The notes beneath the pieces were generated by a model. It searched no databases. It was not told the origin of the DNA and saw nothing but the letters and a program-made list of their open reading frames with translations. Below are positions 4,991 through 61,003 of a stretch of DNA of 64,000 nucleotides, piece by piece. The position numbers and the translations under genes are program-made. Source of the stretch: Candidatus Cloacimonadales bacterium. GTDB taxonomy: Bacteria > Cloacimonadota > Cloacimonadia > Cloacimonadales > JAIOQZ01. Where the stretch lies: contig CAXXTU010000002.1 in assembly GCA_963662655.2 (NCBI GenBank), positions 2,208,001 to 2,272,000 on the forward strand, given 5' to 3'. The number at the start of each line of letters is the position of its first letter. The first letter of the stretch is position 1.

Positions 4991-5067
4991 CTGGTTTACC
5001 GGTTTGGCATTTTCGCCCGATCGCGCGCTCCTTGCGTAGGCGGCAGGTTATCGGACGCGATTCCTTT
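4991..5067 (-). repeat. Family B element, short degenerate copy
   Basis: The minus strand reads GATCGGGCGAAAATGCCAAACCGGTAAACCAG, one mismatch to the 16-nt 3' box. The 5' arm is degenerate (CGTCCGAT). Confidence 0.6.
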
Positions 5068-39234: not shown

Positions 39235-39293
39235 GTTGCTTATCCTCTAATCTTTCTGCATTTCAAACGGAAAATCCTCTCTGAGAAAAACTT

Positions 39294-39420
39294 CCGGCGG
39301 CAGATTGGTTCGATCTGTGTACAAGGCGTGGTGTTTCACAGCTTTTGTTCCTTTTGACATTAGTTTCAAAAGGTGTGGTATATCCACGTCTTTCACACAG
39401 ATCGGGCGAAGATGCCCCGG
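39294..39420 (+). repeat. Family B rod-like hairpin, copy 1
   Basis: GCAGATTGGTTCGATC...GGTGTTTC...GGTATATCC...GATCGGGCGAAGATGC with complementary arms. Confidence 0.85.
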
Positions 39421-39465
39421 AGCACCAACTGGCAGAAATGGACATCCTCTCTTCTCTCTCGCCTT

Positions 39466-39580
39466 AATCCTGATCATCCCATAAATCCCGAAAATCCTGC
39501 TTCAAGCAATCTCCAGGAACGCAGGCATCCTGCCTGCTCCCTCTTCCCAATCCTATTAATCCAATAAATCCTGATTCAAA
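39466..39580. repeat. Two blocks of 9-bp-period AATCC repeats around a REP-like mini-hairpin
   Basis: AATCCTGAT CATCCCATA AATCCCGAA AATCCTGCT TCAA; then GGAAC-GCAGGCA-TCC-TGCCTGC; then AATCCTATT AATCCAATA AATCCTGAT TCAA. Confidence 0.7.
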
Positions 39581-39587
39581 CATTTCC

Positions 39588-41669
39588 CTAATACTTGATC
39601 AACTTCTCCCGCTCCACGTAGAATGCCGCATACTGCTCACGCACCGGCTGATTTTCCTTTTTATCGAGCTGGGGATCGTCGCTGACGAGATCGAAGGCGT
39701 CCTTTCTGGCCAGCTTGAGCCACTCTTGATGCCTAATCAGGTTCGCATGCTTGAAATCCGGCATGCCCGACTGCCGGGTTCCGAAGAAATCTCCCGGACC
39801 GCGCAGATCAAGATCCTTCTCGGCGATGTCAAAACCGTCGTTCGTGCGGGACATGGTGGATATCCTCTCCCAGGCATCCTTAGAAACCGGCGGGTAATAG
39901 ATAAGATAGCACGTCGACTGCTGAACCCCGCGCCCCACTCTCCCCCGCAACTGATGCAACTGGCTGAGCCCGAAACGCTCCGCGTGCTCGATCATCATGA
40001 TCGTCGCGTTAGGGACATCGATTCCCACCTCGATCACAGTGGTCGAGACCAGAATGGAAAACTCCCGCTGCTTGAAGGCTTCCATGATCGCGTCCTTCTC
40101 CGAAGACTTCATCCTGCCGTGCAACAGCGCTGAATTGAACTCGGGAAAAATCTCCTGCGAGATGTCCCTGAAAAGCGTCTCCGAATCGAGCAGATAGCTC
40201 TTGTCGGATTCCTCCACCAACGGGCACACCAGATATGCCTGCCGACCTCGCTTCAACTGCTCGCGAATCTCTCGATACACATCGAGCTTTTTCTCGCCCG
40301 TCTTGTGAACCGTCCGGATCGGCTTTCTTCCCGGGGGCATCTCGTCGATCACACTCACGTCCAGATCGCCGAACGCCGTCATCGCCAGCGAGCGTGGTAT
40401 CGGCGTTGCGGACATGTGCAGCAGATTCGGTTTCCGGCCTTTCTCGCTCAGGAGTGCTCGTTGCTGCACCCCGAAGCGATGCTGCTCGTCCACGCAGACA
40501 AAACCGACATCGTGAAACTTCACGCCCTTTTGGATCAACGCGTGGGTACCGAATACCAGATTGACCTCTCCGGAGGCGATCTTCTCGAGGGTGGCCTTCT
40601 TGCCTTTGTAATTCCCGCCCTTGATCATCGCGACGCCAATATCCGGCTGGTTTTCCAACAAACTCATCGTGTTGCGATAGTGCTGCTCTGCCAGAATCTC
40701 GGTCGGGGCCATGAGAACAGCCTGATAGCCGTTTTCCACCGCAAGGAGCATCGCGAACAGCGTAACGATGGTCTTTCCCGAACCTACGTCCCCCTGAAGA
40801 AGGCGATTCATCTGATGCTCGGATTCCATGTCCGCGACGATTTCGCGAATCACTCTCTTTTGCGCGCCGGTCAGCTCGAACGCGAGGCTGTTTTTCAACT
40901 TTGTCGTATAGGTCTTCCGAACCGGGAGTGAAACGCCGAGGGTTTCTATCTTTCGCGTTCCGTACACCCGTGCCAGAAGAAGCTGATGATAAAAAAACTC
41001 TTCGTAGATGAATCGCTTCCGAACCGACTCCACGTCGGTCTCGGGAACGGGGAAATGCATCTTCTCCATCGCCGATTTTCTATCGGGAAACTGGTAGTGT
41101 TCGATGATCCGTTGTGGTAATGTTTCGGCGATGTGATCGTGGTACTTGCTGAACGCGCTGACCACCAGCTTGCGCATCATGTTCAAGGTGATTTTCTCGG
41201 TGAGCGGGTAAACCGGTAGTATCTTCCGGTTTTTCCAGAAGTCGTCGGAAGTGTCCTCGTCCAGGAGAATCTCGATGTCGGGATGGATAATCTGCGGCAG
41301 GCCCTTGTAGCCGGCTACCAGGCCGGACACCCAGACCGACGCGCCCTCCTTCAACTGATCGGAAAGCCATTTCCCGTAACGGAACCAGGTACAGAGCAGC
41401 ACCGCTTCGCCATCGGTAACCGACACATTGAGCTGGTTCTTTCCCCGGGCGGTGCGCCGCTCTTCAATAAACTGGATCGTTCCCACAATCGCGCATTGCT
41501 TGTCGATCTCGATATCGCGGATCTTTTGCATCGTGTGGCGATTGATATAACTGCGCGGAAAGCACTCCAGAAGATCACCCACGCTGTATATGTTCAACTT
41601 CGCAAGAAGACGGGCGCGATACTCTCCCACACCCGTAAGAAATTGTATTTCGGTTTTCCAGGGATTCAT
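39588..41669 (-). CDS. recG: ATP-dependent DNA helicase RecG
   Basis: RLLQGDVGSGKT, MAPTEILAEQH, DEQHRFGV, SATPIPRSL, QLHQLRGRVGRG and DLRGPG motifs. Confidence 0.97.
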   Translation of the reverse strand: MNPWKTEIQFLTGVGEYRARLLAKLNIYSVGDLLECFPRSYINRHTMQKIRDIEIDKQCAIVGTIQFIEERRTARGKNQLNVSVTDGEAVLLCTWFRYGKWLSDQLKEGASVWVSGLVAGYKGLPQIIHPDIEILLDEDTSDDFWKNRKILPVYPLTEKITLNMMRKLVVSAFSKYHDHIAETLPQRIIEHYQFPDRKSAMEKMHFPVPETDVESVRKRFIYEEFFYHQLLLARVYGTRKIETLGVSLPVRKTYTTKLKNSLAFELTGAQKRVIREIVADMESEHQMNRLLQGDVGSGKTIVTLFAMLLAVENGYQAVLMAPTEILAEQHYRNTMSLLENQPDIGVAMIKGGNYKGKKATLEKIASGEVNLVFGTHALIQKGVKFHDVGFVCVDEQHRFGVQQRALLSEKGRKPNLLHMSATPIPRSLAMTAFGDLDVSVIDEMPPGRKPIRTVHKTGEKKLDVYREIREQLKRGRQAYLVCPLVEESDKSYLLDSETLFRDISQEIFPEFNSALLHGRMKSSEKDAIMEAFKQREFSILVSTTVIEVGIDVPNATIMMIEHAERFGLSQLHQLRGRVGRGVQQSTCYLIYYPPVSKDAWERISTMSRTNDGFDIAEKDLDLRGPGDFFGTRQSGMPDFKHANLIRHQEWLKLARKDAFDLVSDDPQLDKKENQPVREQYAAFYVEREKLIKY

Positions 41670-41700
41670 AAGCAACTCACAGGGAAAAACGCATGCCGGA

Positions 41701-44532
41701 TCAGTAAACCTCCACACCCACGGTGGCACGATAATCATTCATCCAGGTATCGAATCTCTGCTGAAGAATTTCCTCACGGAAGCTCTTCAAATTCTGTTCC
41801 ATACTGTCTTTGTCCGCCTTGTGGGTGTTCTCCACACGATAAACCAGATAACTGTCGTTTTGTAGCAGAATGGGGTAGCAATATTCACCCTCCTGCTTCT
41901 TGATCGCGTCGGCTAGGATATACTCGCTGTACTGGACGCCCGGAATCTCACCGTCGACGGTCAGATCCGAAGCGTGCTTCCACTCGCCCAGGAATACAAG
42001 CGACGTCTTGGGATCGTCATCCTGATCGAGGCCGTCGATCAGGTTGATCAGATACTCTTTGCGCGCGCTGCGCCGGGCTTCATCATCGTACATGGCCTGA
42101 ATCTGCGAAATCGCGTCCTCATAGGCGATCTGCCTGCCGTACTTCTTGTATCGCATGAAGACAACGGAATAGCCGTCATGGCTCTTGATGATCGATGTGT
42201 ATTTTTCGTTTCGATAAAGCTGCATGATACGGGTACCGATCTCCTTGATGCGACCGAACGGAGCGAAATCCCCATCGATTGATTGCCTCTCCGTTTCATG
42301 CACATAAACGCTATCGGCAAGCGTCAGGACATCGGCGTAGTAATTCGCGTTATCGAAGATGTACTTCGCCTTCGCGTAGGCCAGGCTGTCTGCCCGGCGC
42401 ATTTCCAGCTTATGACGAATGCTTCCTTTGACCTCATTGAATTTAACAGCGCCGGCCGCTTTCTCGCTGATCTTCATGACCATCAGCCAACCGCCGTTCA
42501 CAAATGCAGGTTCCGAAACCTCGCCGCGGAAAATCCGTTCGAGAATTGTGCGGTATTCAACAGGAAGCTCATCCATATACGTTGTGCCCGATGAGGGAAT
42601 ATCGATCGGAGAACCCATCAGTTCCTGGATCAGCTCCAGATTCTTTTCCCTGCTGGCATAGCGGTAAAGGTACTCAGAATAATCGCGGCGCTTTCCTTCC
42701 GGATCGCTGAGGAAAAACACCTGATATTCCACGCGGGGTGACATATAAAATTCCTTCGGATGATTCTGGAAATAGGTGTGGACTTCCTCCTCCGAAACCC
42801 TTACGGAATCGAGCTCGATCGGGTAGTACACCCCTGCAAGACTCAGGCTGTCCGGAGTTGTGAAAAAGGGTTGATTTCGCGTGTAAAAGAGACGGTAATC
42901 GGACGTGTCCGCCTGTACGGTCTCTTTGTGCAGTTTGGGTAGCTGAATCTTCACCTGTTCGTAAGAAGGAATATACTGGGGGAAAACCGAATCGACGCGG
43001 TAGATCACCAAGCGATCCTGGTAATTCACGATGCCCGACGCGGCATTCTGGTTACGCTTGACTGCGTATGCGATGTAGTCGTCCAGCGGCTCCACATTTT
43101 CCAGCCGGTCCAGGAACACGACGGTCCGTTCGAGTTTTATATTGTATTCCGCAGCCACGGAACGAAGCATCTGGTTATCGAAAAGGACCGGAATAATTTT
43201 CGACCGGATGTCTTCCATGCGCCGTTGAACCGATTCGTTTCGCAGTTGTTCCAGAATCTGTTCGCGCGCCTCACTGAAGGTAAGCCTGTTGCCGCGACGA
43301 TTGAACTGCTGCTGGTGCGATTGATAGTATTGGCGGACGGCCGCTTCGGGTATGTTTATTTTATCCTCGAACTGCGCCTGATCCACGACAACGCGAGTTA
43401 CGTACGCCGCCGGAACGATAAACTGGTCGATATTCTCTTCGTAATACTGCCGAAAATCGCCGGAGAACTGGATGTCCTTATGATCTTCAGCGTAGTCCAG
43501 CCAGACCTCTTTGCCCACTTCTGGAGTCAACCCGGAGTGTGGCTCTTTTTTATCGAGCACACGGAAAAAGAGGAAGCCGAATCCCACATCGTAGATTTCG
43601 GATATTTCCTTTTCCCTCATCTCGAAGGCATCGGAAAGAATCTCTGAGGCAGCCGGGAAATCACCAATCACACCGTCTTCGCGCAGGAAGTCGGTGATAA
43701 CTGGCGAGATCGGCGCTGGATCGTTCATTCTGACCAAATCGCGAATCGATTCCAGGGAATCGCGCACGATCAGCCGCTGCTTTGCTTCCTGAAGTACCGC
43801 CACGAGGCTGTCCCGGATTTCATCCAGAGGATACACGCTTGCGAAGGGCATGTACGTCCTCATCAATTCGTCTTGAGAAATCTTGATCGCGTCCTTGAAC
43901 CGTTCATTCTGGAGGACGAACAATTCCAGGCGCACTTCCGCGGGTGTACGGTACTTGCGGCTGTGATCCTGATAGTACTGCATCGCCTCTTCCGTATTGC
44001 AGGAAGGCGAAACATCCAGCAGCTCCCCGTCGATGGTTATATATCCGATATCGAATCGGAACCGGCTGGTGATATATTGATCCCGAACGATCGCGTCGGT
44101 GATTTCGAAACTTTCCTCGATGATCTTCCTGGTCTTGCCAAGCAGCAAATCCCGCTGAAGGTCCTGCATGATCTTGCGTATTTGCGGACGTTTGCTCAGT
44201 CGTTTGAATTTGAGGTAGCTGAACGCGCCGTTTTCCTGAAACTGCGAGTGATCTCCGTATTCGTTGATGAAGTAAGCCTCCACCTCGCTGCTATCGACGG
44301 TGATGCCGTATTCGTCCGCGAAGCTTACCATGAGGTATTCTTCGATCAGGTTGTTCAGCGCTTGCCGGCGCAACGCGTGATAGGTGCTCGGAGTATGCTG
44401 CAAATCGAAGAGGTAATCGATTTCGTTATCGAGCCTTTCTTGGGTGATGTAATACTCACCCACTCGTGCAACGACCTGAGCGTTGAGGGCGATTACTCCC
44501 AGCAAAAACAGTACAATCAGAATCTTGCGCAT
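41701..44532 (-). CDS. Large SurA/PpiD-like periplasmic chaperone
   Basis: Signal peptide; VVARVGEYYIT...ALNNLIEEYL...GITV..EV SurA N-domain; repeated YY..N...F..P segments. Confidence 0.75.
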   Translation of the reverse strand: MRKILIVLFLLGVIALNAQVVARVGEYYITQERLDNEIDYLFDLQHTPSTYHALRRQALNNLIEEYLMVSFADEYGITVDSSEVEAYFINEYGDHSQFQENGAFSYLKFKRLSKRPQIRKIMQDLQRDLLLGKTRKIIEESFEITDAIVRDQYITSRFRFDIGYITIDGELLDVSPSCNTEEAMQYYQDHSRKYRTPAEVRLELFVLQNERFKDAIKISQDELMRTYMPFASVYPLDEIRDSLVAVLQEAKQRLIVRDSLESIRDLVRMNDPAPISPVITDFLREDGVIGDFPAASEILSDAFEMREKEISEIYDVGFGFLFFRVLDKKEPHSGLTPEVGKEVWLDYAEDHKDIQFSGDFRQYYEENIDQFIVPAAYVTRVVVDQAQFEDKINIPEAAVRQYYQSHQQQFNRRGNRLTFSEAREQILEQLRNESVQRRMEDIRSKIIPVLFDNQMLRSVAAEYNIKLERTVVFLDRLENVEPLDDYIAYAVKRNQNAASGIVNYQDRLVIYRVDSVFPQYIPSYEQVKIQLPKLHKETVQADTSDYRLFYTRNQPFFTTPDSLSLAGVYYPIELDSVRVSEEEVHTYFQNHPKEFYMSPRVEYQVFFLSDPEGKRRDYSEYLYRYASREKNLELIQELMGSPIDIPSSGTTYMDELPVEYRTILERIFRGEVSEPAFVNGGWLMVMKISEKAAGAVKFNEVKGSIRHKLEMRRADSLAYAKAKYIFDNANYYADVLTLADSVYVHETERQSIDGDFAPFGRIKEIGTRIMQLYRNEKYTSIIKSHDGYSVVFMRYKKYGRQIAYEDAISQIQAMYDDEARRSARKEYLINLIDGLDQDDDPKTSLVFLGEWKHASDLTVDGEIPGVQYSEYILADAIKKQEGEYCYPILLQNDSYLVYRVENTHKADKDSMEQNLKSFREEILQQRFDTWMNDYRATVGVEVY

Positions 44533-44533
44533 A

Positions 44534-46069: not shown

Positions 46070-46108
46070 TATATCTCCAATCTATTTTATTATAAAAACT
46101 TTGCGTGG

Positions 46109-46687: not shown

Positions 46688-46751
46688 ACTTTCCACCATG
46701 AAGAACGTTACCTGAAGTCCCCGCAATACGTCAAGACGAATATTATCTGAA

Positions 46752-46952
46752 CCGGTATTCGGAATTCGCGGAAACAGATTCGTTCGCTTCCGCCCGGAGC
46801 CGTATTCTTACACGACGTAACGAAATTAGGTACTCTGGGATACGATGCGGGGGAAGTTCCAGGAAAGATATGGAAATTGTATTCGTGGGAGTCGTGTTGT
46901 TATACGGCGAAGGGCGGATCGGGCGAAGATGCTCCGCGCAATTCGAGACCGG
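46752..46952 (+). repeat. Family B rod-like hairpin, copy 2 (long variant)
   Basis: ACAGATTCGTTCG..TCCGCCC / GGGCGGATCGGGCGAAGATGC, plus GCCGTAT/ATACGGC and ACACGAC/GTCGTGT stems. Confidence 0.8.
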
Positions 46953-46956
46953 CATG

Positions 46957-47069
46957 GTACCTACGCTCGATCCCAACTCCCAACATGGATATAACACGTC
47001 ATAGGGACTATCGAACGCGAATAAATGACGTGTAACACCATGCTGGGAGTTGGGATCAAACGAATCTAC
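46957..47069 (-). repeat. Family B rod-like hairpin, copy 3
   Basis: The minus strand reads GTAGATTCGTTTGATC...GGTGTTAC...GTTATATCC...GATCGAGCGTAGGTAC. Confidence 0.85.
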
Positions 47070-47092
47070 TCACACCTCTGTGCACGTGTTGT

Positions 47093-48271
47093 TTATAAGA
47101 ACTCGATGTGGGTTTCTTTCAGATATTTTTTTTCCAGGACTTCGCAAAAATGTTTAATCAGATTGCGCCGGATCTCCAATTCTTTGGGTAATGAAGGGTC
47201 CTGGTGTGCTTCATTGATGCGCGTTCCGACAATAAACTGAACGATGTCGCTTTCCAGGAAAAGCCTGGCCAGCGTTTTGATCGGGCTGTTTTTCACCTGC
47301 TCCAGGGGATGTTCCTTATCGAGGATACCCAAGCATTTACTCAGGGTAATCGTTCCCTCCGTAACCAGCTCAAATCCTTCCATGGTAGCCGTCGGAGGAA
47401 TATCCGCCCCCCGTTTGACCTCATCCAGATTTACCGACAAGGGCAGATTCAATTCTCGGGAGATGATGGAGGAGGTTGTTCCGCCGCAAATGACTTTCCG
47501 TCCCTTGAAATCACGTGCAATCTGCGCGAGCGTTTTATCTTTCTCGATATCGTACGGCGGACCTGACATCACCAGTAGTTTGCGCGGTTCACGCAGGTAA
47601 AGCGCGGCGCAGGTGATGTCGTCTTTCGCCTTGTGGTTATCGTATTCAAGCGCTCTTCTGGCTGTCTGATAGCAAAGCTCTCCTGCGGAGATGGATCGAT
47701 TATCATTGAGCTCGTGAACCAGGAAGCGCTCCACGCCTTGCTCCGACCATCCTAAAGGCATGTATGCGGATCCCATCCCCGATTGCGTAACGCCATCCGA
47801 GAAAAAGACTAGGCGGTCTTCCGGTTCCATCTTGAACACGGAATAGAACAGCCGTCCTTTGCGATCGTTACTCAGGATAATCTCGTTTTTCTTGACGGGC
47901 TGGCTCTTGCCATCCCGCAGAAGCACGATGGATGGATTGTCGTATTCAATCACCCGTACTTTGCCATCCGTTCCGGCATCGACGATCGTGAAGGTGGAGT
48001 AGCCGATCTTACGTTTTGAGCAAACCGGCAAGGTCTCCAGAATAATCTCGGCAGCCCGTCGGATGTCCATATCGGAAAGCACGAAACGGGAAGCCATCGT
48101 TGTGGTGAGAGTCGCCAGCACGCCGGCTTTCACGCCACTCCCCAATCCGTCTGCGAGAACCGAAACGAGGCGCCCCTTGTCCTTCAGGCTGGTGAAATGG
48201 TCACCGCTGACACCCTGGCCGTCCTTACGAAGCTGATAGTAATCAACCTCGAGATAAACTTCTCCCATCAA
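47093..48271 (-). CDS. SpoIIE/PP2C-type serine phosphatase (hydrogenase-associated, HfsC-like)
   Basis: SGD, LADGLGSGVKA, YSTFT, FSDGVTQSG, DDIT, CGGTT and GTRINEAHQDP motifs. Confidence 0.9.
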   Translation of the reverse strand: MMGEVYLEVDYYQLRKDGQGVSGDHFTSLKDKGRLVSVLADGLGSGVKAGVLATLTTTMASRFVLSDMDIRRAAEIILETLPVCSKRKIGYSTFTIVDAGTDGKVRVIEYDNPSIVLLRDGKSQPVKKNEIILSNDRKGRLFYSVFKMEPEDRLVFFSDGVTQSGMGSAYMPLGWSEQGVERFLVHELNDNRSISAGELCYQTARRALEYDNHKAKDDITCAALYLREPRKLLVMSGPPYDIEKDKTLAQIARDFKGRKVICGGTTSSIISRELNLPLSVNLDEVKRGADIPPTATMEGFELVTEGTITLSKCLGILDKEHPLEQVKNSPIKTLARLFLESDIVQFIVGTRINEAHQDPSLPKELEIRRNLIKHFCEVLEKKYLKETHIEFL

Positions 48272-49962
48272 TCCTGTCCTTTTCTGGAAAACGATTGAAC
48301 AATCGAATTGAGCAGCACTTCGCTGTCGGCGGCATTCTCACCGAGCAGGAACGCGATCTGCTGTACGGTGGTCAGGTTTTTCTTCATCACCTCTCGCGCG
48401 TTCTGAATAATCTTCTCGCTCTGGATAACCGGTTCCGTGACGTCCTGCAAAACCCCTCCAACCGTGTGGTGCGGTTCCACCGTAAACACCGTGAGGCGGA
48501 TCACCTTCTTGTTGTGTTCGATATCCATGACCATCGATTCGTTTCCGTCCTGCAGAACCTGTTTGAACACCTCGTGGAACGGAATCAGCCTTTCCAGATA
48601 GACACCAGCAAGCTCGGGATTGACCTCGTACACGATGCTCGCATCTCCACCGACGATATCCACGAAGCGTGGATTGCACTCGAGGATTTTAAGGTCACGA
48701 TCGACAATCACCACGCCGCTGGGCATCGTTTTGAGGAGCGCGTTCGCCTTGTTCTGCGCCAGTTTACGTAAATGGGAAACACACATGGCCGGTTCGGCCC
48801 GATCCTCGAGCATGGCAACCGCGAAATCCTGACACGAGTTGTATCCGCAACCACCGCAATTCAGTTCGTCGACATGCCGCACCTTTCCGATGCGCAGCAA
48901 CGCTTGAGCGATCTGATCGGAAGTAAACGGCTTCTTTGCTTGCGGCTCGGGATAAAACTGTTTCTCGATCTTGCGGATGCTGTTCCGCGCCTCTTCCTCG
49001 GTGGGGAGCGGAGTCGATTTGAGAATCTGCGAGCGCTTGACGACCGTCGCTCCGCGCTTGGAGACCTGCGGCCCGTTCACGCAACCACCTTCGCATGCGA
49101 GCGCTTCGATGAATACTGGCGCGTCGAGATGAATCTTCCCGATATCCTCGATCGATTCCATGATGTCCTTCACGCCGCTCACGCACAGGAATTGCACATC
49201 CGGGAATTGCCTGTTCTGGCGAATTCCGTCGATCATCCCGCCGTCGATCGGATACCAACCGCCTTCTTCCGCTTTCTCGGGCACGAAGGCGGCCGTATCG
49301 TTCGAGACTACGATTGACTCGCTGTTGAGCCATCTGCGAAGCTCTTTGAAGGTCAGGCTCACGTCGATCGTTTCGCCTGTCTCCGTCTTCTTGGCGATAC
49401 ATGGGCTGAAGAAGACCACCCCGATATCTTCCCCGAACGTATCTCGCAGAATTCTGCCATGCGCTTGAACCGGTGACATCAAGTCGGTGAGGTTGCCGAT
49501 CTGATCCGGGTAATATCGCTCAACGAGCCGAACGACGGACGGACACGCAGTGGAGATGTATACTTTTTTCTCACCCTCGGAAAGAATCCTGGCGCAGGCA
49601 GCGGAAACCTCCTGCGCCCCCAATGCCGTCTCCGAAACTCCTGCAAATCCGAGCTGCTCGATGCACGCCAGAAGCTGACCTTCGGGGATATCGGCAAACT
49701 CGCTTCGGAATGATGGTGCAACTGAAGCGTAAACGGGTTTCCCCGATGCGATGAGCGCTCGAGCCTGATCGATATCGTCTCGAACCTTCTTCGCTCCCAC
49801 GGGACACACCAGCGTACACTTTCCGCAGTACAAACAGTCTTCCGCGATAACTGCTGCGCTGCCATCGCGAACAAGAATCGCTTTGACCGGGCAGTTTCTG
49901 ACACATTTATAGCAGTCCTGGCACTCGGTTTTCTCAGTATAGATCGGATTCTCAGCGTTCAT
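48268..49962 (-). CDS. Sensory group C [FeFe]-hydrogenase with a PAS domain (HydS/HfsB-like)
   Basis: N-terminal 2x[4Fe-4S]; variant H-cluster motifs STACP, SPCIAKK and EALACEGGC; NCGGCGYNSC FeS domain; C-terminal PAS. Confidence 0.9.
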   Translation of the reverse strand: MNAENPIYTEKTECQDCYKCVRNCPVKAILVRDGSAAVIAEDCLYCGKCTLVCPVGAKKVRDDIDQARALIASGKPVYASVAPSFRSEFADIPEGQLLACIEQLGFAGVSETALGAQEVSAACARILSEGEKKVYISTACPSVVRLVERYYPDQIGNLTDLMSPVQAHGRILRDTFGEDIGVVFFSPCIAKKTETGETIDVSLTFKELRRWLNSESIVVSNDTAAFVPEKAEEGGWYPIDGGMIDGIRQNRQFPDVQFLCVSGVKDIMESIEDIGKIHLDAPVFIEALACEGGCVNGPQVSKRGATVVKRSQILKSTPLPTEEEARNSIRKIEKQFYPEPQAKKPFTSDQIAQALLRIGKVRHVDELNCGGCGYNSCQDFAVAMLEDRAEPAMCVSHLRKLAQNKANALLKTMPSGVVIVDRDLKILECNPRFVDIVGGDASIVYEVNPELAGVYLERLIPFHEVFKQVLQDGNESMVMDIEHNKKVIRLTVFTVEPHHTVGGVLQDVTEPVIQSEKIIQNAREVMKKNLTTVQQIAFLLGENAADSEVLLNSIVQSFSRKGQD

Positions 49963-49978
49963 AGGGTGATTCCTTGTT

Positions 49979-50212
49979 TCACAGATTTTCGTCCAAAAGC
50001 CGGACGATGTTTTCCGGTTGCACGTTATGATAGCTTACGCCATCGATGATCATGTTGGGGCCTTGTCCGCACGCGCCAAGGCACAAAGAGCCTTCCAAGC
50101 GGACAAATCCTTCCAGGCCGTGCGATTTGATATATTCCTCGATCTTCGACAGGTTTTCGCGGTTCGCCCTTGCGAAGCAGGAGCTTCCCATGCAGATTTT
50201 GATCACTTTCAT
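49979..50212 (-). CDS. Thioredoxin-like [2Fe-2S] protein (HfsA-like)
   Basis: ICMGSSCFAR...LCLGACGQGP. Confidence 0.85.
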   Translation of the reverse strand: MKVIKICMGSSCFARANRENLSKIEEYIKSHGLEGFVRLEGSLCLGACGQGPNMIIDGVSYHNVQPENIVRLLDENL

Positions 50213-50214
50213 GG

Positions 50215-52212
50215 TTACGCCCTTACCGAGTCCTGTATCATCGCGACCACGCGATCGAGCGTAGCGAAGTGCAGCACGTCGTCGCCAACCGCGACCGATG
50301 GTCCCTTGTCGCATCTTTCGGTACAGAACGTTGCCCCGAGATCGACCTTCTGCGCCCAGTCCTTCTCCTCGATCGTCTTGAGAAGATTTGCCAGAAGATC
50401 ATGAGCGCCACGGAGATAGCAGCTTGTTCCAACGCATACGCGCACCTTGACGCGCTCCTGCGTCGAGGATCCGGTCAGAGAGATGCTCTCATCCGCAATG
50501 CGCTTGCGGCTGGTGTAGTGCGTGTGAAGCATTTTGTGCGCGACTTCGCTGTTGGGCTCGTCGAGCAGCGTGTCGTACAGTTCCTGAATAAACGGATTGC
50601 GGTGGGATTTCTTCAAGGGGCTGATCTTGTCTGTATTGGCGATAGCCTTCGCACGGGCCTGACGTTCTTCGGAGGAATGGACGATCGGTTGACCCGCTCC
50701 GCCGATGCACCCGCCCGGGCAGGCCATCACTTCCACGATGTCGTATTGCAGCTCGCCGCTGAGGACTTTTTCGGCAACGTACGCCGCGTTTTTCAGGCCA
50801 TGAACCACAGCCAACCGCAGGGTTGTTGACCCAAGCGTGATTTCCGTCTCCCGAATCCCTTTTATATCACGGATTTCATCCAGATCGATCGAATCGGGTC
50901 TCTCTTCGCCCAGCACATCAGCGGCATACCGCACGACAGCCTCGCTCACACCGCCGGTTTTACCGAAAAGGACGCCGGCTCCCGTTGCCATACCCATGGG
51001 CATGTCCATCGATTCCGGTTCCAGGGAAGCGAAGTCGATACCGGCTTCCTTGATCATGTTGCCCAGCTCCTGGGTCGTAAGCGCGAAATCGACATCCTGG
51101 AATCCGTCGGTGCGGAATTCCGGACGCGCGCACTCGTATTTCTTCGCCGTACACGGCATGATCGATACCACGGTGAGTTTTCCTTGGGGTATTCCCATCC
51201 TCTGCGGCAGCATGTTACGCGCCAGCGAGCCGAACATTTGCTGAGGCGAGCGGCAAGACGAGAGGTAAGGAAGCAGGTCGGGATGCGACTGCTCGGCGAA
51301 CTTCACCCAGGCCGGGCAGCAGGAGGTGAACACAGGGAGCTTCCCGGCAGCGCTCTTGCGCTTTAGTAGCTCGTTCGCTTCCTCGACAACAGTCAGATCG
51401 GCAGCGAACGAGGTGTCGAACACCAGATCGAATCCCAGCATGCGCATGGCAGCGACAATCTTACCGGTCGTGACTTCTCCCGAAGGCATGCCGAACATCT
51501 CGCCGATCGCCACCCGGACAGCCGGAGCGATCTGCGCGATCACCTTCTGATCGTTGTCTTGAATCGCTTCCCAGACTCCGCCTGTTTGCGAGCGGATAGT
51601 AATCGCGCCCACCGGGCAAACTGCCGCACACTGTCCGCAGTTCACGCAGCCGACATCGGCAAGGCTTTTGTTGAAGGCAGGAGACACCACCACGTCTTCG
51701 CCGCGGTTGGTAAAATCGATCGCCGCGATGCCCTGAATCTCGTCGCAGTAGCGAACGCAGTCACCGCAGAGAACGCATTTGTTGGGGTCGCGAACCAGAG
51801 CGATGGAGCCGAGGTCTTTCTCCTTGGGATTCTTGGTCTTGCGATAGCGCACGTTCTCTATGCCGAGCTTGGCGCTGAGAGAGCGCAGGCTGCAAGTTTC
51901 CGAACGCGCACAGGTCGGGCAGGCCTGGTCGTGGTTTGCCAGCAGCATTTCCACGATGTTCTTGCGCAGGCGTTGAATCTGCTTGGTGTGAGTGAACACC
52001 CGCATGCCTTCTCTTGGAGGTGTGGAGCAGGAGGTTACAATCCCCTTTCCTTCGATCTCCACCAGGCACAGACGGCACGCGCCGTAAACGCTGAGTTCGG
52101 AATGGTAACAAAATGTAGGGATATCGATGTGCGCCTTACGCGCGACGGCCAATATATTCTTCTCCCCTTCCAGAGGGATCGGGCGGTTGTTTATATAGAT
52201 AATGGGTTTCAT
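50215..52212 (-). CDS. hydA: [FeFe]-hydrogenase catalytic subunit with a C-terminal [2Fe-2S] domain
   Basis: N-terminal FeS domains; TSCCPAW, MPCTAKKYE and EVMACPGGC H-cluster motifs; C-terminal VCVGTSC...CTERCDKGP. Confidence 0.95.
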   Translation of the reverse strand: MKPIIYINNRPIPLEGEKNILAVARKAHIDIPTFCYHSELSVYGACRLCLVEIEGKGIVTSCSTPPREGMRVFTHTKQIQRLRKNIVEMLLANHDQACPTCARSETCSLRSLSAKLGIENVRYRKTKNPKEKDLGSIALVRDPNKCVLCGDCVRYCDEIQGIAAIDFTNRGEDVVVSPAFNKSLADVGCVNCGQCAAVCPVGAITIRSQTGGVWEAIQDNDQKVIAQIAPAVRVAIGEMFGMPSGEVTTGKIVAAMRMLGFDLVFDTSFAADLTVVEEANELLKRKSAAGKLPVFTSCCPAWVKFAEQSHPDLLPYLSSCRSPQQMFGSLARNMLPQRMGIPQGKLTVVSIMPCTAKKYECARPEFRTDGFQDVDFALTTQELGNMIKEAGIDFASLEPESMDMPMGMATGAGVLFGKTGGVSEAVVRYAADVLGEERPDSIDLDEIRDIKGIRETEITLGSTTLRLAVVHGLKNAAYVAEKVLSGELQYDIVEVMACPGGCIGGAGQPIVHSSEERQARAKAIANTDKISPLKKSHRNPFIQELYDTLLDEPNSEVAHKMLHTHYTSRKRIADESISLTGSSTQERVKVRVCVGTSCYLRGAHDLLANLLKTIEEKDWAQKVDLGATFCTERCDKGPSVAVGDDVLHFATLDRVVAMIQDSVRA

Positions 52213-52222
52213 CGTTCGCTCC

Positions 52223-54100
52223 TTAGGAAATCGCCTTGAATTTACAGATTTCGATACAGGCTCCGCATTTGATACACTTTCCGGGATCGATCACGTGCGG
52301 TTGTTTGACGGTTCCGGAGATTGCGCCCACCGGGCAGCTTCTCTTGCAAAGCGTACAGCCCACGCAGATTTTCGGATCGATGGTGATTGGGACCAGCGCG
52401 GAACACTCCCGAGTAGGACAATACTTTCCGTTCACGTGCGCTTCGTATTCGTCGCGGAAGTAACGCAGGGTCGATAGCACCGGACTTGGCGCGGATTTCC
52501 CCAGGCCGCAGAGCGAGGTGATTTTCACCGTCTCGGCCGTGTCTTCCAGAAGCGGAATCGTGGTCTCGTCCGCACGACCTTCGGTGATGTCCTCCAGGAG
52601 TTCCAGCATCTGGCGGGTTCCTTCGCGGCACGGGACGCACTTTCCGCAGCTCTCGTGCTGGGTGAATTTCATGAAGAAGGAGGCGATACGCACCATGCAG
52701 GTGCTCTTGTTCATCACCACCAGGCCCCCCGAGCCCACCATCGCGCCGATGGAAGAAAGCGAATCGAAATCGAGCGGGACATCGAGGTGTTCTTCGGTGA
52801 GGCAGCCGCCGGAAGGTCCGCCGATCTGCACCGCCTTGAACGCGGTGTTATCGATGTTGCCGTTCTCGTCGATCACGCCACCGCCGATATCGAAAACGAT
52901 CTCGCGGATGGTCGAACCGAACGGAACCTCGATGAGACCGGTGTTCACGACATGCCCCGTGAGAGCAAAAGCCTTGGTTCCGGGTGACTTCTCCGTTCCG
53001 ATGGAGCGGAATTTTTCCACGCCGTAACGGAGAATCTGCGGTACCGTCGCCAGCGTTTCAACGTTGTTGATGACCGTGGGCTTTCCGAAGAGTCCCACTT
53101 CTGCCGACCGCGGCGGTTTGGTACGAGGCATTCCCCGTCCGCCCTGGATGGAGGCGATCATGGCCGAGCCTTCGCCGCAGACGAACGCTCCCGCGCCTTC
53201 CATTACCTGGATGTCGAACGAATGGCCGGATCCGAAGATGTTATCGCCCAGGATGCCATGCGATTCCGCGTCCTTGATGGCCTTGCGGATCCGTTTGCAG
53301 GCCAGCGGGTATTCCATGCGGACATAGACGTACCCGTGATTCGCAATGGAACCCCTCGCCGCGATCAGCATACCTTCGATCACGCTGTGGGGATTCCCTT
53401 CGAGGATACTGCGATCCATAAACGCCCCCGGGTCGCCTTCGTCCCCATTGCAAATAATGTATTTATCTTCGGAAGCTTGCTTTCTCGAGAGATCCCATTT
53501 AACGCCAGCGGAAAAGCCGCCACCGCCTTTGCCCCTTAAACCTGCTTCTTTGTATGTCGTGCAAATGTCTTCCGGAGCGAGTTCGAGCCATGCCTTGCGA
53601 GCGGCTTCGTAGCCTCCACCCGCGATGTATTCGTCGATGCTCTCGGGGTCGATGTGACCACATTCCTTGAGCACGTTGCGGGTCTGTCTCGAATAAAACG
53701 GTATATCCTGGGTAGTCTTGCAAGGCGAATGATCGGCAGGGTTCTTGTAAAGCAGGCGGTCAACGGCTTTTCCGTTTTGCAGAGTGGTATGTACGATTTC
53801 CTCAGCATCTTCTGGCTTAACATGCGTATAGAGAAATCCTTCCGGTTCCACGGTAACCAATGGACCAACCTGACAGAAGCCCTGACATCCGCTCTGAGAG
53901 AGAAGCACGTCGTGTTTCTCCTCACCCCTGAGCTCGATCGTCACATCGAGGCCTCTCTCGGAAGCGATACGTTTGAGAGCCGCGTGAACCTTCAACGATC
54001 CGTTCGCGATACATCCCGTACCTGCGCAAATAATCACCCTTCGCTCGCAACCGGTGCGAGCCGTCTTGTATTTCAAGGCGATTTCGTTCAAGTTACACAT
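52223..54100 (-). CDS. hydB: Bifurcating hydrogenase diaphorase subunit (NuoF-like)
   Basis: N-terminal [2Fe-2S]; GDEGDPGAFMDR, NNVET, GGPSGG and ESCGKCVPCREG motifs; C-terminal 2x[4Fe-4S]. Confidence 0.93.
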   Translation of the reverse strand: MCNLNEIALKYKTARTGCERRVIICAGTGCIANGSLKVHAALKRIASERGLDVTIELRGEEKHDVLLSQSGCQGFCQVGPLVTVEPEGFLYTHVKPEDAEEIVHTTLQNGKAVDRLLYKNPADHSPCKTTQDIPFYSRQTRNVLKECGHIDPESIDEYIAGGGYEAARKAWLELAPEDICTTYKEAGLRGKGGGGFSAGVKWDLSRKQASEDKYIICNGDEGDPGAFMDRSILEGNPHSVIEGMLIAARGSIANHGYVYVRMEYPLACKRIRKAIKDAESHGILGDNIFGSGHSFDIQVMEGAGAFVCGEGSAMIASIQGGRGMPRTKPPRSAEVGLFGKPTVINNVETLATVPQILRYGVEKFRSIGTEKSPGTKAFALTGHVVNTGLIEVPFGSTIREIVFDIGGGVIDENGNIDNTAFKAVQIGGPSGGCLTEEHLDVPLDFDSLSSIGAMVGSGGLVVMNKSTCMVRIASFFMKFTQHESCGKCVPCREGTRQMLELLEDITEGRADETTIPLLEDTAETVKITSLCGLGKSAPSPVLSTLRYFRDEYEAHVNGKYCPTRECSALVPITIDPKICVGCTLCKRSCPVGAISGTVKQPHVIDPGKCIKCGACIEICKFKAIS

Positions 54101-54593
54101 CGTGCCCCTCCTGCTTTTTCAATTCGTTCACAATCTCGATGGCCTTATCTGGCGTTACCTGCCCATACACGTCGTCATCGACGACCAGAACAGGTGCGAG
54201 TCCGCATGCGCCGAGGCACGATACGGTTTCGAGCGTGAAAAGCATGTCCGGCGTGGTTTTCTTCTTCTCGTTGAGGCTCAGATGCTCTCGAAGGGCTGTG
54301 ATAATCTTGCCGGAACCTTTAACATGACAAGCGGTTCCGTCGCAAATCCGCAGAATGTGTTTACCCTTGGGTTCAAGTGAAAAGTGGCTGTAAAATGTTG
54401 CAACCCCATATATCTTGGCCGGCGAGACGCCCAAGGATGTCGCGACGAATACAAGCACCTCCTGGGGAAGATAGCGATACTCTTCCTGGACGGCCTGCAA
54501 TATCGGGATGATCATCTTCGGGTCCCGCTGGTGCTGATCGAGTATCTCGATCACCTTACGGAAACTACGGTTTGCTTGCAGGGTATCTGTCAT
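54093..54593 (-). CDS. hydC: Hydrogenase NuoE-like [2Fe-2S] subunit
   Basis: GVATFY, CDGTACHVKG and CLGACGLAP motifs. Confidence 0.93.
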   Translation of the reverse strand: MTDTLQANRSFRKVIEILDQHQRDPKMIIPILQAVQEEYRYLPQEVLVFVATSLGVSPAKIYGVATFYSHFSLEPKGKHILRICDGTACHVKGSGKIITALREHLSLNEKKKTTPDMLFTLETVSCLGACGLAPVLVVDDDVYGQVTPDKAIEIVNELKKQEGHDV

Positions 54594-54607
54594 TGTTTCT
54601 CCATGGT

Positions 54608-55249
54608 TTATTCAGATTGTTTCATCAGTTTGACGGCCAGCCTCTGAGAGAGTACGGCCAGGCTGGCATATAAATCGACATTCTCGACGATGATGTTTTC
54701 GGGGACAACAAGCTGAACCGGAGCAAAGTTCCAGATCGCCATGATTCCCGATGCGAGCATCATATCCGCCACAGACTGAGCTGCTTCCGGCGGCACCGTT
54801 ACAATCCCGATATGAACATGCAGACGCTGTGCGAGATTACTGAATTTTTCCATGGCAAAAACAGGGACATCATGAATCTTCGTATCTATTAGTATAGGGT
54901 TTGTATCGAATGCTGCAAGTATTTTCATCCCTTTGGTTTCGAAAATCTCGCGATAACCCATGATCGCGGAGCCGAGGTTTCCCGCTCCAACGATAAAGGC
55001 TTCCGAGGAGTCGTTCCAGTTCAGGAAATCACTGATCGCAAGAGCGAGCTCGTTCACCTTGTGGCCCACCTTTGGCACGCCTACTACACCTGTGGAAGCG
55101 AGATCTTTGCGAACCTGCGTCCTGTGCACTCCGGTGTGATTGGCCAGCGAGGTTGCCGAGATGTACTCCTGCTTATTCTTTTGCGCTTCCAGTATGATTT
55201 GCAGGTACTGGGACAGCCTTCTCAGGGTTAAAATCGATACCGGTTTCAT
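54608..55249 (-). CDS. rex: Redox-sensing transcriptional repressor Rex family
   Basis: RRL..Y, QVRKDL wHTH, VGAGNLG.A and IWNFAP motifs; AAGGAG RBS. Confidence 0.92.
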   Translation of the reverse strand: MKPVSILTLRRLSQYLQIILEAQKNKQEYISATSLANHTGVHRTQVRKDLASTGVVGVPKVGHKVNELALAISDFLNWNDSSEAFIVGAGNLGSAIMGYREIFETKGMKILAAFDTNPILIDTKIHDVPVFAMEKFSNLAQRLHVHIGIVTVPPEAAQSVADMMLASGIMAIWNFAPVQLVVPENIIVENVDLYASLAVLSQRLAVKLMKQSE

Positions 55250-55266
55250 GATGTCTCCTTTCATTT

Positions 55267-55284
55267 TCGATAGATTATTATCGA
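55267..55284. promoter_or_regulatory. 18-bp palindrome, candidate Rex operator upstream of rex-hyd
   Basis: TCGATA-GATTAT-TATCGA; the same pattern occurs three times upstream of adh. Confidence 0.6.
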
Positions 55285-55328
55285 TATGAATTTTGCCATT
55301 ACAACGTCAATGTTTTTCATTCAGAAAA

Positions 55329-55362
55329 GTACGGGAAGGACGCCTGGCATCCTTCCCTGTAC
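55329..55362 (-). terminator. Hairpin after adh, probable terminator
   Basis: GGGAAGGA-cgcctggca-TCCTTCCC followed by a short U tract on the minus strand. Confidence 0.6.
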
Positions 55363-55367
55363 CCTAT

Positions 55368-56579: not shown

Positions 56580-56596
56580 CTTTCACTCCTTTGTAT

Positions 56597-56658
56597 TCGT
56601 GATTTTTTTATCGATATATATTTATCGAGATTATAATCACGATATCCGCGTCAAGCAA
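56597..56658 (-). promoter_or_regulatory. adh sigma70-type promoter overlapped by three tandem 18-bp palindromes
   Basis: The minus strand reads TTGCTT-17 nt-TATAAT. Palindromes lie at 56597-56614, 56611-56628 and 56625-56642. Confidence 0.65.
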
Positions 56659-56898
56659 ATTTTTTCTTCAATTATTTTTTTGTGAGATGTAATCCAAGTA
56701 ATTATAGACGGTTACGAACGATAAAAAAAACGTGATATCCAGCGATCCAGACATTTTTCACGAAATTCCTTTGCAGCGATAAAGAATTCAATGGAAAAAG
56801 CCCTCCTTCCTTATTGGCAGATAATCTCCTTAATAAACTTGACACTTCCAGCAAGCCGCAATCTCTATTGTGTCAATTCGTTGAAGGATGGAATCGAT

Positions 56899-58119: not shown

Positions 58120-58357
58120 TTCCAGATTCAAATATCTCACGTTGTTTACACAAATTACAGACGGTTTCTTGCTCCGATTCCCTTTAATCGCCTTCTTTGG
58201 ATTCGATGAAAAACCAATAGCATTCAAAGTAACAATGTAATAATTATTTTAAAATTGTTTTTCAGGCCAAACATTGTATTATTTATATTGAGAAAATATC
58301 GTATTATTATGGACATTTTACATGAAAGTAATCTAACTGTAACAAAATGGAGGTTCC

Positions 58358-60649
58358 ATGAAAAGGTTTTTATTTTGTTTTGTAACCATTCTGATCGCAC
58401 TACCCCTACTTTCTCAGTCGGGGGTCGCGCCTTCGGGACTCGGTACGGAGGCCAGCCCATATCTGATAGCCACGTGGCAGAATCTTTATTGGGTCAGCCA
58501 GAATTCGAGCGAATGGGGCAAGCATTTTCTCCAAACCGCGGACATCGATTTCTCGACAGCTACCCCGGCCATTACAACCTGGAACGGCAATCAGGGGTGG
58601 ACTCCCATCGGTAACGCCACGACACAATTCACCGGCGTCTATGATGGCGATGGATTTAAAGTCATGAACCTCTATCTGAATTACCCTGGAAGCGGTGAAC
58701 CTACTTCTGTTATTGAGGCACAGGCTCTGCCCGGGAACATCGGCCTGTTCGGTTATCTTAAATGCACTTCAACAACGGACGCGATAATCCGCAATCTTGG
58801 GATACTGAACGCTGATGTTACCGGGGGCAGAGGTACCGGAACTTTATTGGGGCGCTCATTGCTCCCAAGCGACGCATCCCATACGACAATCGTCGAGAAC
58901 TGCTACGCGGCGGGAAATGTTACGGTACGCGGATTCGGCGCGACAGGCGGCCTGGTTGGTGCGAACAACTCACAGAAAAAGAACATCGTTCCCATCATTC
59001 GGTACTGCTATGCGGATGCTGACGTGGAGAGTCGCTTCCCGACCAATTCGATTCAGAATCCCGCAGATAACAACGAGTTGTTCAACATCAAGTATGGCGG
59101 ACTTGTCGGCTGCAACGAGAACGGGCTCACCATGGACAGTTATTCCCGGGGGAACGTATACGGTGGCAAGAGAGTCGGCGGTGTGTCCGGCTGCTCCATC
59201 CGCGGCGCGGTAATCCGGTGTTATGCCACAGGCCAGGTTCGCACCGGTTTCCAGAGTCCTCCCTTCACCGCGGATGCCGATCCGTTTGTCGGCGGAATCG
59301 TTGGGCGCGTGGATGGAAAATTACCCGGCGGCTTGGGCGGCTTCTCTGGAAGCGGATCGATTCAGATGTGTTACTGGGATACGACAACTTCAGGAAACAC
59401 AACCTCCGGGGGTGGATCGGGAGCTCAGGGCAGAACAACCGCCCAGATGCAGACACAGGCGAATTATACCGACTGGAATTTTAACGGCGTCTGGTTGATT
59501 TCCGCCAGCCAGTATCCCCGCCTCGGTTGGCAGGACGACGTGAATATAAACCCAACTTCCGACACTTACGAGGGCATGCTTTCCCCGACCGTCGATACGG
59601 GAACAGCCCTCCCCAACGCCCTTTACTCATCCACCAGCGTCGGTGGACAATCAGTATACACGGGCTTTATGCCTTCAGCTACAGAAACCGTCAATATCTC
59701 AATCTACGCGATTTACTCCGAGAATCCCCTGTTCGTTGAAGGCGACTTCCCCAATCCAGAGAACCTCGGCGCCTACTGGAAGTTCTACTGCTCGGACGAC
59801 GCGGTTCTGAGAAACGCTCAATACTTTGACATCCAGATGCCGAACGAATACACGGATATCTGGTACCGATACAGTCGCGACGGAGCTGAAGTGCTTTCCT
59901 GGCGAAAAATCCCTGGCGGAGTATCGGTTTATCAGTCGGGAAGCTATATCTACAGAATCACGATCAGCGGTTTGAGTCTGCCCTCCGGAGCAAGAGCCGG
60001 AGAGTTGGGTGAAATCGAATTCGCGGGAGACATCGGAGGAGGGGAGACCCTTCCTGTAGAGCTCTCCTCGTTCACGGCCACACAAACCTCAGTCAATGCT
60101 GCCACGCTTGCATGGACAACCCAGAGCGAAAGCGATATGATCGGGTACTACGTACTTCGAAGTCAAACCGAAGACCTCGTCGACGCTACCAGAATTTCCG
60201 GATTGATCGCTGCCGGGAACAGTCCCGCCGAGAACTCCTACCACTACACGGACGAGGATGTTTCGTGTGACAACACCTACCGTTACTGGCTTCAAAGTGT
60301 CGCGATGGATGCAACTTCTGCGTTTTTTGGCCCGGTGACTTTGACGATTACCAACAACGAAGGCGAAGGAAACGAAGCTCCGGAAGTCTTTGCCATCGAA
60401 CTGATGGGTTGCTACCCGAATCCGTTCAACCCTGCAACAACCATCAGCTATTCCCTCGCAAAAGACGGCCTCGCGAAATTCACCATTTTCGATCTGAAAG
60501 GACGTGAAGTCGACCGCTTCTCTCATGATGGCGCTAAAGGCTACAACAAGGTCACATGGAACGCGGAAAACATGGCTTCCGGTATTTACTTTGTACGTAT
60601 GAACGCCCAAGGTACCGAACAAACAAGAAAAGTTATGCTTCTCAAATAG
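58358..60649 (+). CDS. Exported GLUG-motif beta-helix protein with a T9SS-like C-terminal domain
   Basis: GLGTEASPYLI, GWTPIG, GLFG and GGLVG repeats; LPVELSSF; YPNPFNPATTI...ASGIYF...KVMLLK. Confidence 0.9.
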   Translation: MKRFLFCFVTILIALPLLSQSGVAPSGLGTEASPYLIATWQNLYWVSQNSSEWGKHFLQTADIDFSTATPAITTWNGNQGWTPIGNATTQFTGVYDGDGFKVMNLYLNYPGSGEPTSVIEAQALPGNIGLFGYLKCTSTTDAIIRNLGILNADVTGGRGTGTLLGRSLLPSDASHTTIVENCYAAGNVTVRGFGATGGLVGANNSQKKNIVPIIRYCYADADVESRFPTNSIQNPADNNELFNIKYGGLVGCNENGLTMDSYSRGNVYGGKRVGGVSGCSIRGAVIRCYATGQVRTGFQSPPFTADADPFVGGIVGRVDGKLPGGLGGFSGSGSIQMCYWDTTTSGNTTSGGGSGAQGRTTAQMQTQANYTDWNFNGVWLISASQYPRLGWQDDVNINPTSDTYEGMLSPTVDTGTALPNALYSSTSVGGQSVYTGFMPSATETVNISIYAIYSENPLFVEGDFPNPENLGAYWKFYCSDDAVLRNAQYFDIQMPNEYTDIWYRYSRDGAEVLSWRKIPGGVSVYQSGSYIYRITISGLSLPSGARAGELGEIEFAGDIGGGETLPVELSSFTATQTSVNAATLAWTTQSESDMIGYYVLRSQTEDLVDATRISGLIAAGNSPAENSYHYTDEDVSCDNTYRYWLQSVAMDATSAFFGPVTLTITNNEGEGNEAPEVFAIELMGCYPNPFNPATTISYSLAKDGLAKFTIFDLKGREVDRFSHDGAKGYNKVTWNAENMASGIYFVRMNAQGTEQTRKVMLLK

Positions 60650-60671
60650 CTCATCACACACCCACAATAAC

Positions 60672-60706
60672 AATCGCTGGCCGGGACTTCCTCCCGACCA
60701 GCGATT
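60672..60706 (+). terminator. Intrinsic terminator
   Basis: AATCGCTGGCCGGGA-cttcc-TCCCGACCAGCGATT followed by CCTTTCT. Confidence 0.65.
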
Positions 60707-60746
60707 CCTTTCTGACGTGTACGTTAGAAGTAAAATACTACCTCGA

Positions 60747-60873
60747 GGCGCGAGCAGATTCGTTCGATCCGCTCCTGAACAGGGTGTTTCCCGGTGGAGT
60801 TACCAATATCAAAATGCCTACGAAACCGGGGTATATCCCTGATCAGGAGCGGATCGGGCGAAGATGCCACGCC
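60747..60873 (+). repeat. Family B rod-like hairpin, copy 4
   Basis: GCAGATTCGTTCGATC...GGTGTTTC...GGTATATCC...GATCGGGCGAAGATGC with complementary arms. Confidence 0.87.
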
Positions 60874-60973
60874 GGTGAAACATCTACTGCAAACTATCGA
60901 TCCCTATTACATTTTCCGCTTTGACAAATCAAAAACCGGGAAATAGAGGAGGCATAAATTGTTTTATATGTGT

Positions 60974-61003
60974 AAAGACCGGTATCCCGGAGGATACCAG
61001 TCT
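60974..61003 (-). terminator. Probable terminator of the LamG gene
   Basis: AAGACCGGTATCC-cgga-GGATACCAGTCTT, 17 nt after the stop codon. Confidence 0.6.

Follow-up and report, generated by a model that had tools for sequence, protein, structure and literature searches.

A two-box, rod-like hairpin family with replication polarity in one genus of Candidatus Cloacimonadales

According to PMC6006769, systems pairing repetitive extragenic palindromic (REP) sequences with their REP-associated tyrosine transposases (RAYT) are defined by a GT[AG]G foot and a flanking tnpA-REP gene, and IS608-type enzymes put the active strand into the lagging-strand template. REP hairpins are strand-specific and require their mismatches (PMC8266576), compensatory change is described in the spacer of REPs and of REP doublets forming hairpins (REPINs) (PMC3116915), and the attC sites of sedentary integrons have their folding strand on the leading-strand template (PMC5371416). 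Here we describe a family of rod-like hairpins from a 64,000-nt stretch (the window, G000:C2:2208001-2272000) of the 3.8 Mb genome of a Candidatus Cloacimonadales bacterium, referred to as G000, which resembles these systems in some respects and departs from them in others. The family is real, constrained and undescribed in the searchable sources; no description of it was found in the literature, most subscription papers and supplements being outside the search.

An earlier note on this DNA had pointed to four copies in the window, and all four were re-found at the same coordinates and strands, both in the sequence and by a covariance model built from 40 G000 copies, with boxes matching those first described (Table 1). 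From the outside inward, the rod consists of a 6 bp outer stem, a bulged A (111/124 copies), a basal box, a middle stem of 11-13 nt, an inner box, an upper stem and a variable loop. The basal box reads GCA/TGC, a tandem G·A/A·G (in 101 and 103 of 124 copies, otherwise mostly G·G), TTCG/CGAA, two T·G pairs (110 and 112 of 124) and CGATC/GATCG, while the inner box reads GTGG/CCAC, a bulged T (116/117), T-A, G·T (113/117), T-A, T·T (110/117) and then one position occupied by A-T, T·G, C-G or G-C. The two mismatched boxes are predicted protein-binding sites. The gap between the two boxes, measured from where the basal box ends, was 11-13 nt in 113/117 copies, rather than the 13-14 bp given before, and the CCGG(T) tail reported at that time does exist, but as the end of the 6-bp outer stem plus a weak GGT, and it is species-specific. 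The loops fall into several classes, with a core length of 64-257 nt and one tandem case of 378 nt. Outside the rod, conservation ends about 11 nt away and a promoter/terminator scan stayed at chance level, so the conserved unit includes no promoter or terminator.

An inner box had been claimed for three of the four copies only; copy 2 has one as well, with its arms swapped (GTATTCTTACAC first and GTGTTGTTATAC second). This is the same duplex rotated 180 degrees against the basal box, not inverted, and G000 has at least 8 copies of this type, 6 besides the two in the window, while the related genome G001 has at least 13. A fifth, divergent copy in the window was absent from the earlier list. 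With copies 1, 3 and 4 folded on both strands and compared to shuffles, z-scores of the motif strand were -9 to -12 for RNA and -7.9 to -8.7 for DNA, the complement being always worse; copy 2, folded as DNA, reached -4.9.

A collection of all genomic copies had been suggested, and profiles of the two arms counted 144 loci in G000, 128 of them with both arms (the reversed genome, as a control, gave 0 loci at E<=1), with more in three close relatives of the same genus, G001 (closed chromosome), G002 and G003. These relatives were sampled at loci rather than covered whole, and related copies and related genomes are non-independent observations. The covariance model matched 4/8 genomes of the taxonomic family, all of one genus, with 131, 63, 40 and 33 matches among at most 150 candidates scored per genome, and in a phylum sample it matched 3/151 genomes, all again of that genus; the element was absent from the sister genera. 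An exact-pattern search of one genome per species, which covered only the normal type with an interior of 25-55 nt, returned 47 stretches, of which 37 lay in three records titled 'Candidatus Cloacimonadales bacterium'; the other 10, from non-Cloacimonadales genomes, formed no rod and were dismissed as chance. The same verdict applied to all matches in viral contigs (0, then 19) and in JGI metagenomes (8), and a BLAST of one copy against PLSDB and phages gave no match. No known Rfam family was involved, with 0 hits at the gathering threshold in the window and only sub-threshold, generic hairpin matches for 20 copies. Among the genomes searched, the family is restricted to one genus of Ca. Cloacimonadales.

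Across 40 copies, 90.6% of cells were paired and double-sided change was found at 38/48 pairs, which 0/500 shuffles reached, in a control that ignores relatedness. The boxes are the most constrained part: among 49 nearest-sibling pairs, the difference was 3.9% at non-canonical positions and 4.9% at box pairs, compared to 20% in the middle stem, 20% in the loop, 27% in the outer stem and 69% in the flanks. In 47 close sibling pairs, 42/55 double changes were compensated, where independence would give about 9 double changes of any kind (rate differences between sites being ignored). The stems are indeed rewritten while staying complementary, as the earlier note had read from four copies. As they change as fast as the loops but stay paired, copying between the arms or module exchange is suggested. 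Interiors are exchanged at shared sites, and module similarities in G000 are nearly uncorrelated (Spearman 0.06-0.14).

According to gene calls made in this analysis, 60 of the 144 loci lie between convergent genes, an arrangement that makes up 16% of spacers of at least 130 nt; of the others, 73 are in tandem spacers (antisense in 48 cases and sense in 25), 9 in divergent ones and 2 inside called genes. The origin and terminus of G000 were placed from GC skew, a DnaA-box cluster (C2:2767607) and, close to the terminus indicated by skew, a likely dif site (G000:C2:796584-796610). The strand carrying the G·T and G·A mismatches is the leading-strand template, that is, it has the sequence of the new lagging strand, in 100/139 main-contig loci (p 2e-7), and this orientation was seen in convergent (41/60), co-directional tandem (35/45) and head-on tandem spacers (15/25). 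In G001 it was found in 22/22 top-scoring copies and in 24/25 right-arm matches with at most 1 mismatch, after one in-gene chance match was dropped; by local GC skew, a proxy that matches the replichore in 121/139 G000 cases, it held for 22/26 copies in G003 and 11/13 in G002. The fold is weaker in copies of the opposite orientation (median -33 as against -40 kcal/mol, p 2e-4), whose share falls from 14/21 in the weakest fold bin to 4/38 in the strongest. The complement of the majority copies, which is exposed on the lagging template, folds at -35 kcal/mol; since a complement of similar strength is tolerated there, the orientation effect is strand-specific. Base composition was rejected as the cause of the polarity, as it predicts the opposite sign. 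Together with box conservation and change in the paired stems, the orientation supports the earlier proposal of selection on a strand-specific, single-stranded fold.

Empty sites in related genomes, for which the earlier note had suggested looking, were found: of nine syntenic spacers holding a G000 copy and covered by a 1.2 Mb sample of G001, eight were empty and the ninth held a different copy in the opposite orientation, and three G003 sites were empty in G000. Sites are species-specific and target duplication was not found, the best of 36 end pairs giving 2 nt in 17/123 copies, 3 nt in 6 and longer duplications in at most 2. Siblings lie close together, with the nearest one at most 20 kb away in 11/119 cases vs 1.5 expected. 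Gene ends used in the relatives were reused in G000 more than expected (36/135 vs 15%) but in random orientation (19:17), thus the shared gene ends are hotspots. Some sites common to G001-G003 differ inside, for instance a normal and an arm-swapped type with homologous flanks; as part of the flank likeness at such sites belongs to a compound repeat, some of them may go back to independent insertions. In contigs from two runs of one sample, no joint was seen except where other copies mapped. Two tandem duplications, of 307 and 432 nt, each include a family copy.

No cognate enzyme had been noticed in the window, and none was found elsewhere in G000 or beside any of the copies either. The three relatives have 2-6 Y1 genes each, and 20/78 sampled copies in relatives lie 3' of a REP-like hairpin with a TAG foot, at a distance of 20-40 nt, on the same strand and never on the other side or strand; this hairpin also flanks three IS200-family tnpA genes, which makes it the single positive pointer to a Y1 enzyme. 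A single IS200-family tnpA with REP-like hairpin flanks (L083, L084) stands convergent to xerC in G001 and G003, not in G000. Tyrosine recombinases were not found beside an element, G000 having XerC, XerD and island-borne ones, and the family copy after xerD in G000 is not shared with three relatives. No reverse transcriptase (absent in G001, broken in G000) and no GIY-YIG, IS110, GxxExxY, DUF559 or serine recombinase gene was found beside an element, TnpB was not found in the 4 genomes, and the integron integrase model TIGR02249 exceeded its cut-off in 0/4; Y2 gave no match, a weak null as the Y2 control also matched nowhere. A tnpA- or tnpB-bearing form between two ends was not seen either, as lone G000 arms were not paired around a gene and 20 further loci of the relatives held none.

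Two kinds of candidate source or mover were examined and rejected. Small elements (L118, L121, L123, L124 and the remnant G000:C2:701890) encode a 188-aa, catalytic-domain-only tyrosine recombinase and a cysteine-rich open reading frame and have their own terminal hairpin, one of them being inserted beside rplM, and they have only a 10-bp stem in common with the rod. Low-GC PIN-like genes, 26% identical to each other, lie downstream of rnhB in G001 (L278:3255-4711) and on contig C10 of G002 (L193), and the one in G001 lies between two direct copies of the family that are nearly identical and each have a REP-like hairpin, a cassette-like layout. This gene is regarded as a passenger, since 11 homologous loci in other genera carry neither the element nor a comparable rod, and neither G000 nor G003 has it. 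Besides copies of the G000 type, contig C10 (L188, L193) carries the second of two RNase HII genes in G002, and it is probably another organism's contig in the bin.

The likeness to attC and REP first suggested holds for how the element may work and not for membership. As with REPs, REPINs and bacterial interspersed mosaic elements (BIMEs), the family is lineage-restricted, intergenic and multi-copy, with inverted doublets, mosaics and no target duplication, and as with REPs and REPINs it has a strand-specific hairpin with an irregular stem and compensatory change in a variable spacer, besides the REP-like hairpin linked to copies in relatives. It differs in being one rod of 64-257 nt with two internal boxes at fixed spacing, where REPs are short GT[AG]G-footed palindromes, and in having no flanked Y1 gene, a strong replication polarity and an arm-swapped box variant. 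A GT[AG]G motif 0-2 nt 5' of the hairpin foot did not characterise the copies, in which the basal box has mostly GCAG (85/123). Two boxes on the folded strand, extrahelical bases, a variable terminal structure, sequence-relaxed stems and a folding strand on the leading-strand template are shared with attC, whereas the cores RYYYAAC/GTTRRRY were found in 0/123 copies on either strand, there is no IntI and no cassette array, copies stand singly beside housekeeping genes, and the boxes are larger and 12 bp apart. Non-autonomous IS200/IS605 derivatives are likewise single-stranded, hairpin-recognised, free of target duplication and tied in orientation to replication, but the rod has no separate left and right end hairpins, no gene-bearing form was found and the folding strand is on the opposite template. 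Palindromic miniature inverted-repeat transposable elements (MITEs) such as ERIC, RUP and CIR are similar, as imperfect palindromes of ~110-130 nt at gene ends in one lineage; they are set apart by the lack of target duplication, the far more divergent copies, the covarying stems and the fixed non-canonical boxes of the rod family. Membership in DDE-type MITEs was ruled out by the lack of target-site duplication at the ends.

We give a probability of about one half to the reading that the rod is a REPIN-like, non-autonomous single-stranded DNA element moved in trans by a Y1 (HUH, IS200/RAYT-like) enzyme. Such a strand-transfer enzyme would read only the G·T/G·A strand, nick at the foot of the rod and paste it into gene-end spacers, often nearby. 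Copies with the folding strand on the lagging-strand template would fold at the fork and be preferentially cut out, and such loss would leave survivors pointing the other way, in line with what has been described for attC arrays. The stems would drift while paired, either by one arm being copied onto the other or by whole interiors being swapped between copies. G000 would have lost the enzyme gene, and since no enzyme gene was seen beside two other G000 repeat families either, loss of movers is plausible there. Since no cognate enzyme was found in G000, its involvement is a step that we infer, and its nick site, the loss step and any present activity would likewise follow from the patterns described.

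Several observations weigh against a Y1-mobilised element. No Y1/HUH gene was found in G000, the most copy-rich genome, by Pfam, tblastn, a custom profile or a motif scan, and 0/15 Y1 loci fetched (of 17 matches in five relatives) carry the element. The TAG-footed REP-like hairpins are absent from G000, and the 20 copies linked to them in relatives have a linker in common and may stem from a small number of events. GTAG occurs in only 13/123 copies and is paired inside the rod. IS608-type insertion would give the orientation opposite to that observed, so that loss must be assumed as a second step; the GTTCGATAG-loop class has no orientation bias (21:18 vs 69:14 for the other copies), and box mutations are not more frequent in lagging-template copies (p 0.33). 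Also, no two G000 copies are identical.

It is possible, if rather doubtful, that the rod is instead a domesticated, replication-polarised chromosomal site, whose folded strand is read by a host protein (a tyrosine recombinase such as XerC/D, or some other protein) and which provides attC-like exchange points without an integron integrase; such sites would swap interiors and occasionally capture foreign genes. The attC-like design and the polarity known from sedentary integrons (PMC5371416) fit this, as do boxes that stay constrained in a genome without a mobilising gene, the differing interiors at shared G001-G003 sites, the nearly uncorrelated modules of G000 and the low-GC PIN-like gene between two direct copies in G001. 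On the other hand, the absence of attC cores and IntI speaks against it, the flanking genes are housekeeping genes and not low in GC, and of the XerC and XerD arms around a 6 bp centre that mark Xer-exploiting, dif-like sites, the inner box resembles the likely dif site's XerC arm at only 7/11 positions (compared by eye), while a XerD arm is lacking. A rearrangement hotspot was rejected because the synteny-break excess was not significant with junction type controlled (tandem p 0.06, convergent p 1), and the random orientation at sites shared with G000 and the absence from sister genera are further points against a domesticated site. A related reading, an integrase-free, replication-polarised single-stranded DNA recombination site, with a two-box rod and a rotatable inner box, used by a host or other enzyme for local hops, interior swaps and capture of foreign genes at gene ends, we hold to be doubtful.

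The earlier note had left open either a non-coding RNA or 3'-untranslated-region motif or a single-stranded DNA site, and the DNA option is now favoured because the elements are oriented by replication rather than transcription and copies transcribed in sense show no better conservation. A structured RNA, acting in transcripts at 3' ends or through antisense read-through, with an RNA-binding protein or RNase III binding or cutting it, is accordingly disfavoured and in our estimate unlikely. Tandem G·A and G·U pairs are motifs common in RNA, RNA parameters give a far stronger fold, and copies crowd at gene 3' ends, as the convergent excess shows; yet orientation tracks replication within each gene arrangement, antisense copies outnumber sense ones in tandem spacers, sense-only copies stray further from the box consensus (3.0 vs 1.8, p 0.03), and there is neither promoter/terminator conservation beyond ~11 nt nor an Rfam family. 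Very unlikely, in turn, is a functionless MITE-like relic, in which template switching between the arms would keep the pairing and replication-biased deletion would produce the polarity. Stems that change as fast as loops while paired are what arm-to-arm copying predicts, no enzyme is present, folds are weaker on the lagging template, and G000, in which only RNase HIII was found, lacks the RNase HII gene of four relatives; RNase H2 loss reportedly raises palindrome-perfecting mutations in yeast. Template switching would, however, erase mismatches, which are the most conserved positions, a complementary fold about as strong is tolerated on the lagging template, and target duplication is lacking. 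The 4-5-fold slower change of the boxes already largely refutes such a relic.

Other repeats occur near the copies. A second repeat, ~125 nt long, ends in TAC..GTA and shows apparent TNA duplications of 3 bp; it is presumably an IS5-like MITE and has 8 copies by pattern in G000. One G000 and three G001 family copies contain it within their inner box, and it adjoins several others. The 165-166 nt long-loop class of the rod family is formed by a third repeat, a REP-like hairpin that has conserved mismatches of its own, with 20 matches inside loops of family copies and 14 outside, often in tandem (four at C2:1736697). An ISL3-type transposase fragment (window 31499-32281, minus strand) has 13 near-identical G000 copies, 3 of them at most 60 nt from a family copy, and IS3-like copies number 8 in G000, which also has about four related Mu-like prophage regions. 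Spacers L051, L052, L296 and others in G001-G003, as well as window 39465-39580, are mosaics of further hairpin and ATCCTG-type repeats, kinds that we take to occur near DUF559, GIY-YIG and GxxExxY genes. Window 47093-55264 (minus strand) encodes a Rex-like regulator, a bifurcating FeFe-hydrogenase and a sensory hydrogenase with a SpoIIE-domain partner.

Table 1. Family copies, remnants and other repeats (window coordinates unless a contig or locus is named)
Feature	Position	Strand	Remarks
Copy 1, normal type	39287..39427	+	basal box 39300-39315 / 39400-39415; inner box 39328-39339 / 39375-39387; antisense to its two neighbours, an unnamed gene and recG, between which it lies
Copy 2, arm-swapped inner box	46761..46944	+	basal box 46774-46789 / 46917-46932; inner box 46802-46813 / 46894-46905; long terminal loop; tail to tail with copy 3
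Copy 3, normal type, GTTCGATAG-loop class, GTA/TAC variant	46945..47082	-	directly after SpoIIE-domain gene
Copy 4, normal type	60741..60879	+	between convergent genes
Copy 5, divergent, arm-swapped inner box	2057..2171	-	covariance model 45 bits; 3' end of radical SAM gene
Right-arm remnant (inner box, basal box, tail)	2005..2050	+	arm profile; tail to tail with copy 5
Right-arm remnant (basal box, tail)	4995..5031	-	arm profile
Second repeat, ~125 nt	39240-39290	-	
Second repeat, ~125 nt	60903-60980	+	
Second repeat, ~125 nt	4930-4990	-	
Second repeat, ~125 nt	G000:C2:1053840-1054000; L220, L279		
Third repeat, REP-like hairpin	G000, e.g. C2:184464, 862999, 2347013		also in loops of 20 family copies

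There are few folded single-stranded DNA sites that are read through mismatches and not through sequence (attC, REP, IS608 ends), and a programmable enzyme has come from each of them. The architecture of the rod differs from all of these, hundreds of natural variants map its important positions, and a replication polarity of this kind was not reported for REP in the literature searched. If the rod is merely an orphan REPIN-like repeat, it would be a well-characterised curiosity of one uncultured genus; if it is an integrase-free recombination site, it would amount in effect to a dispersed integron. The family offers a ready bait for a new protein that processes single-stranded DNA, and a natural test of whether folding on the lagging strand acts as a purge.

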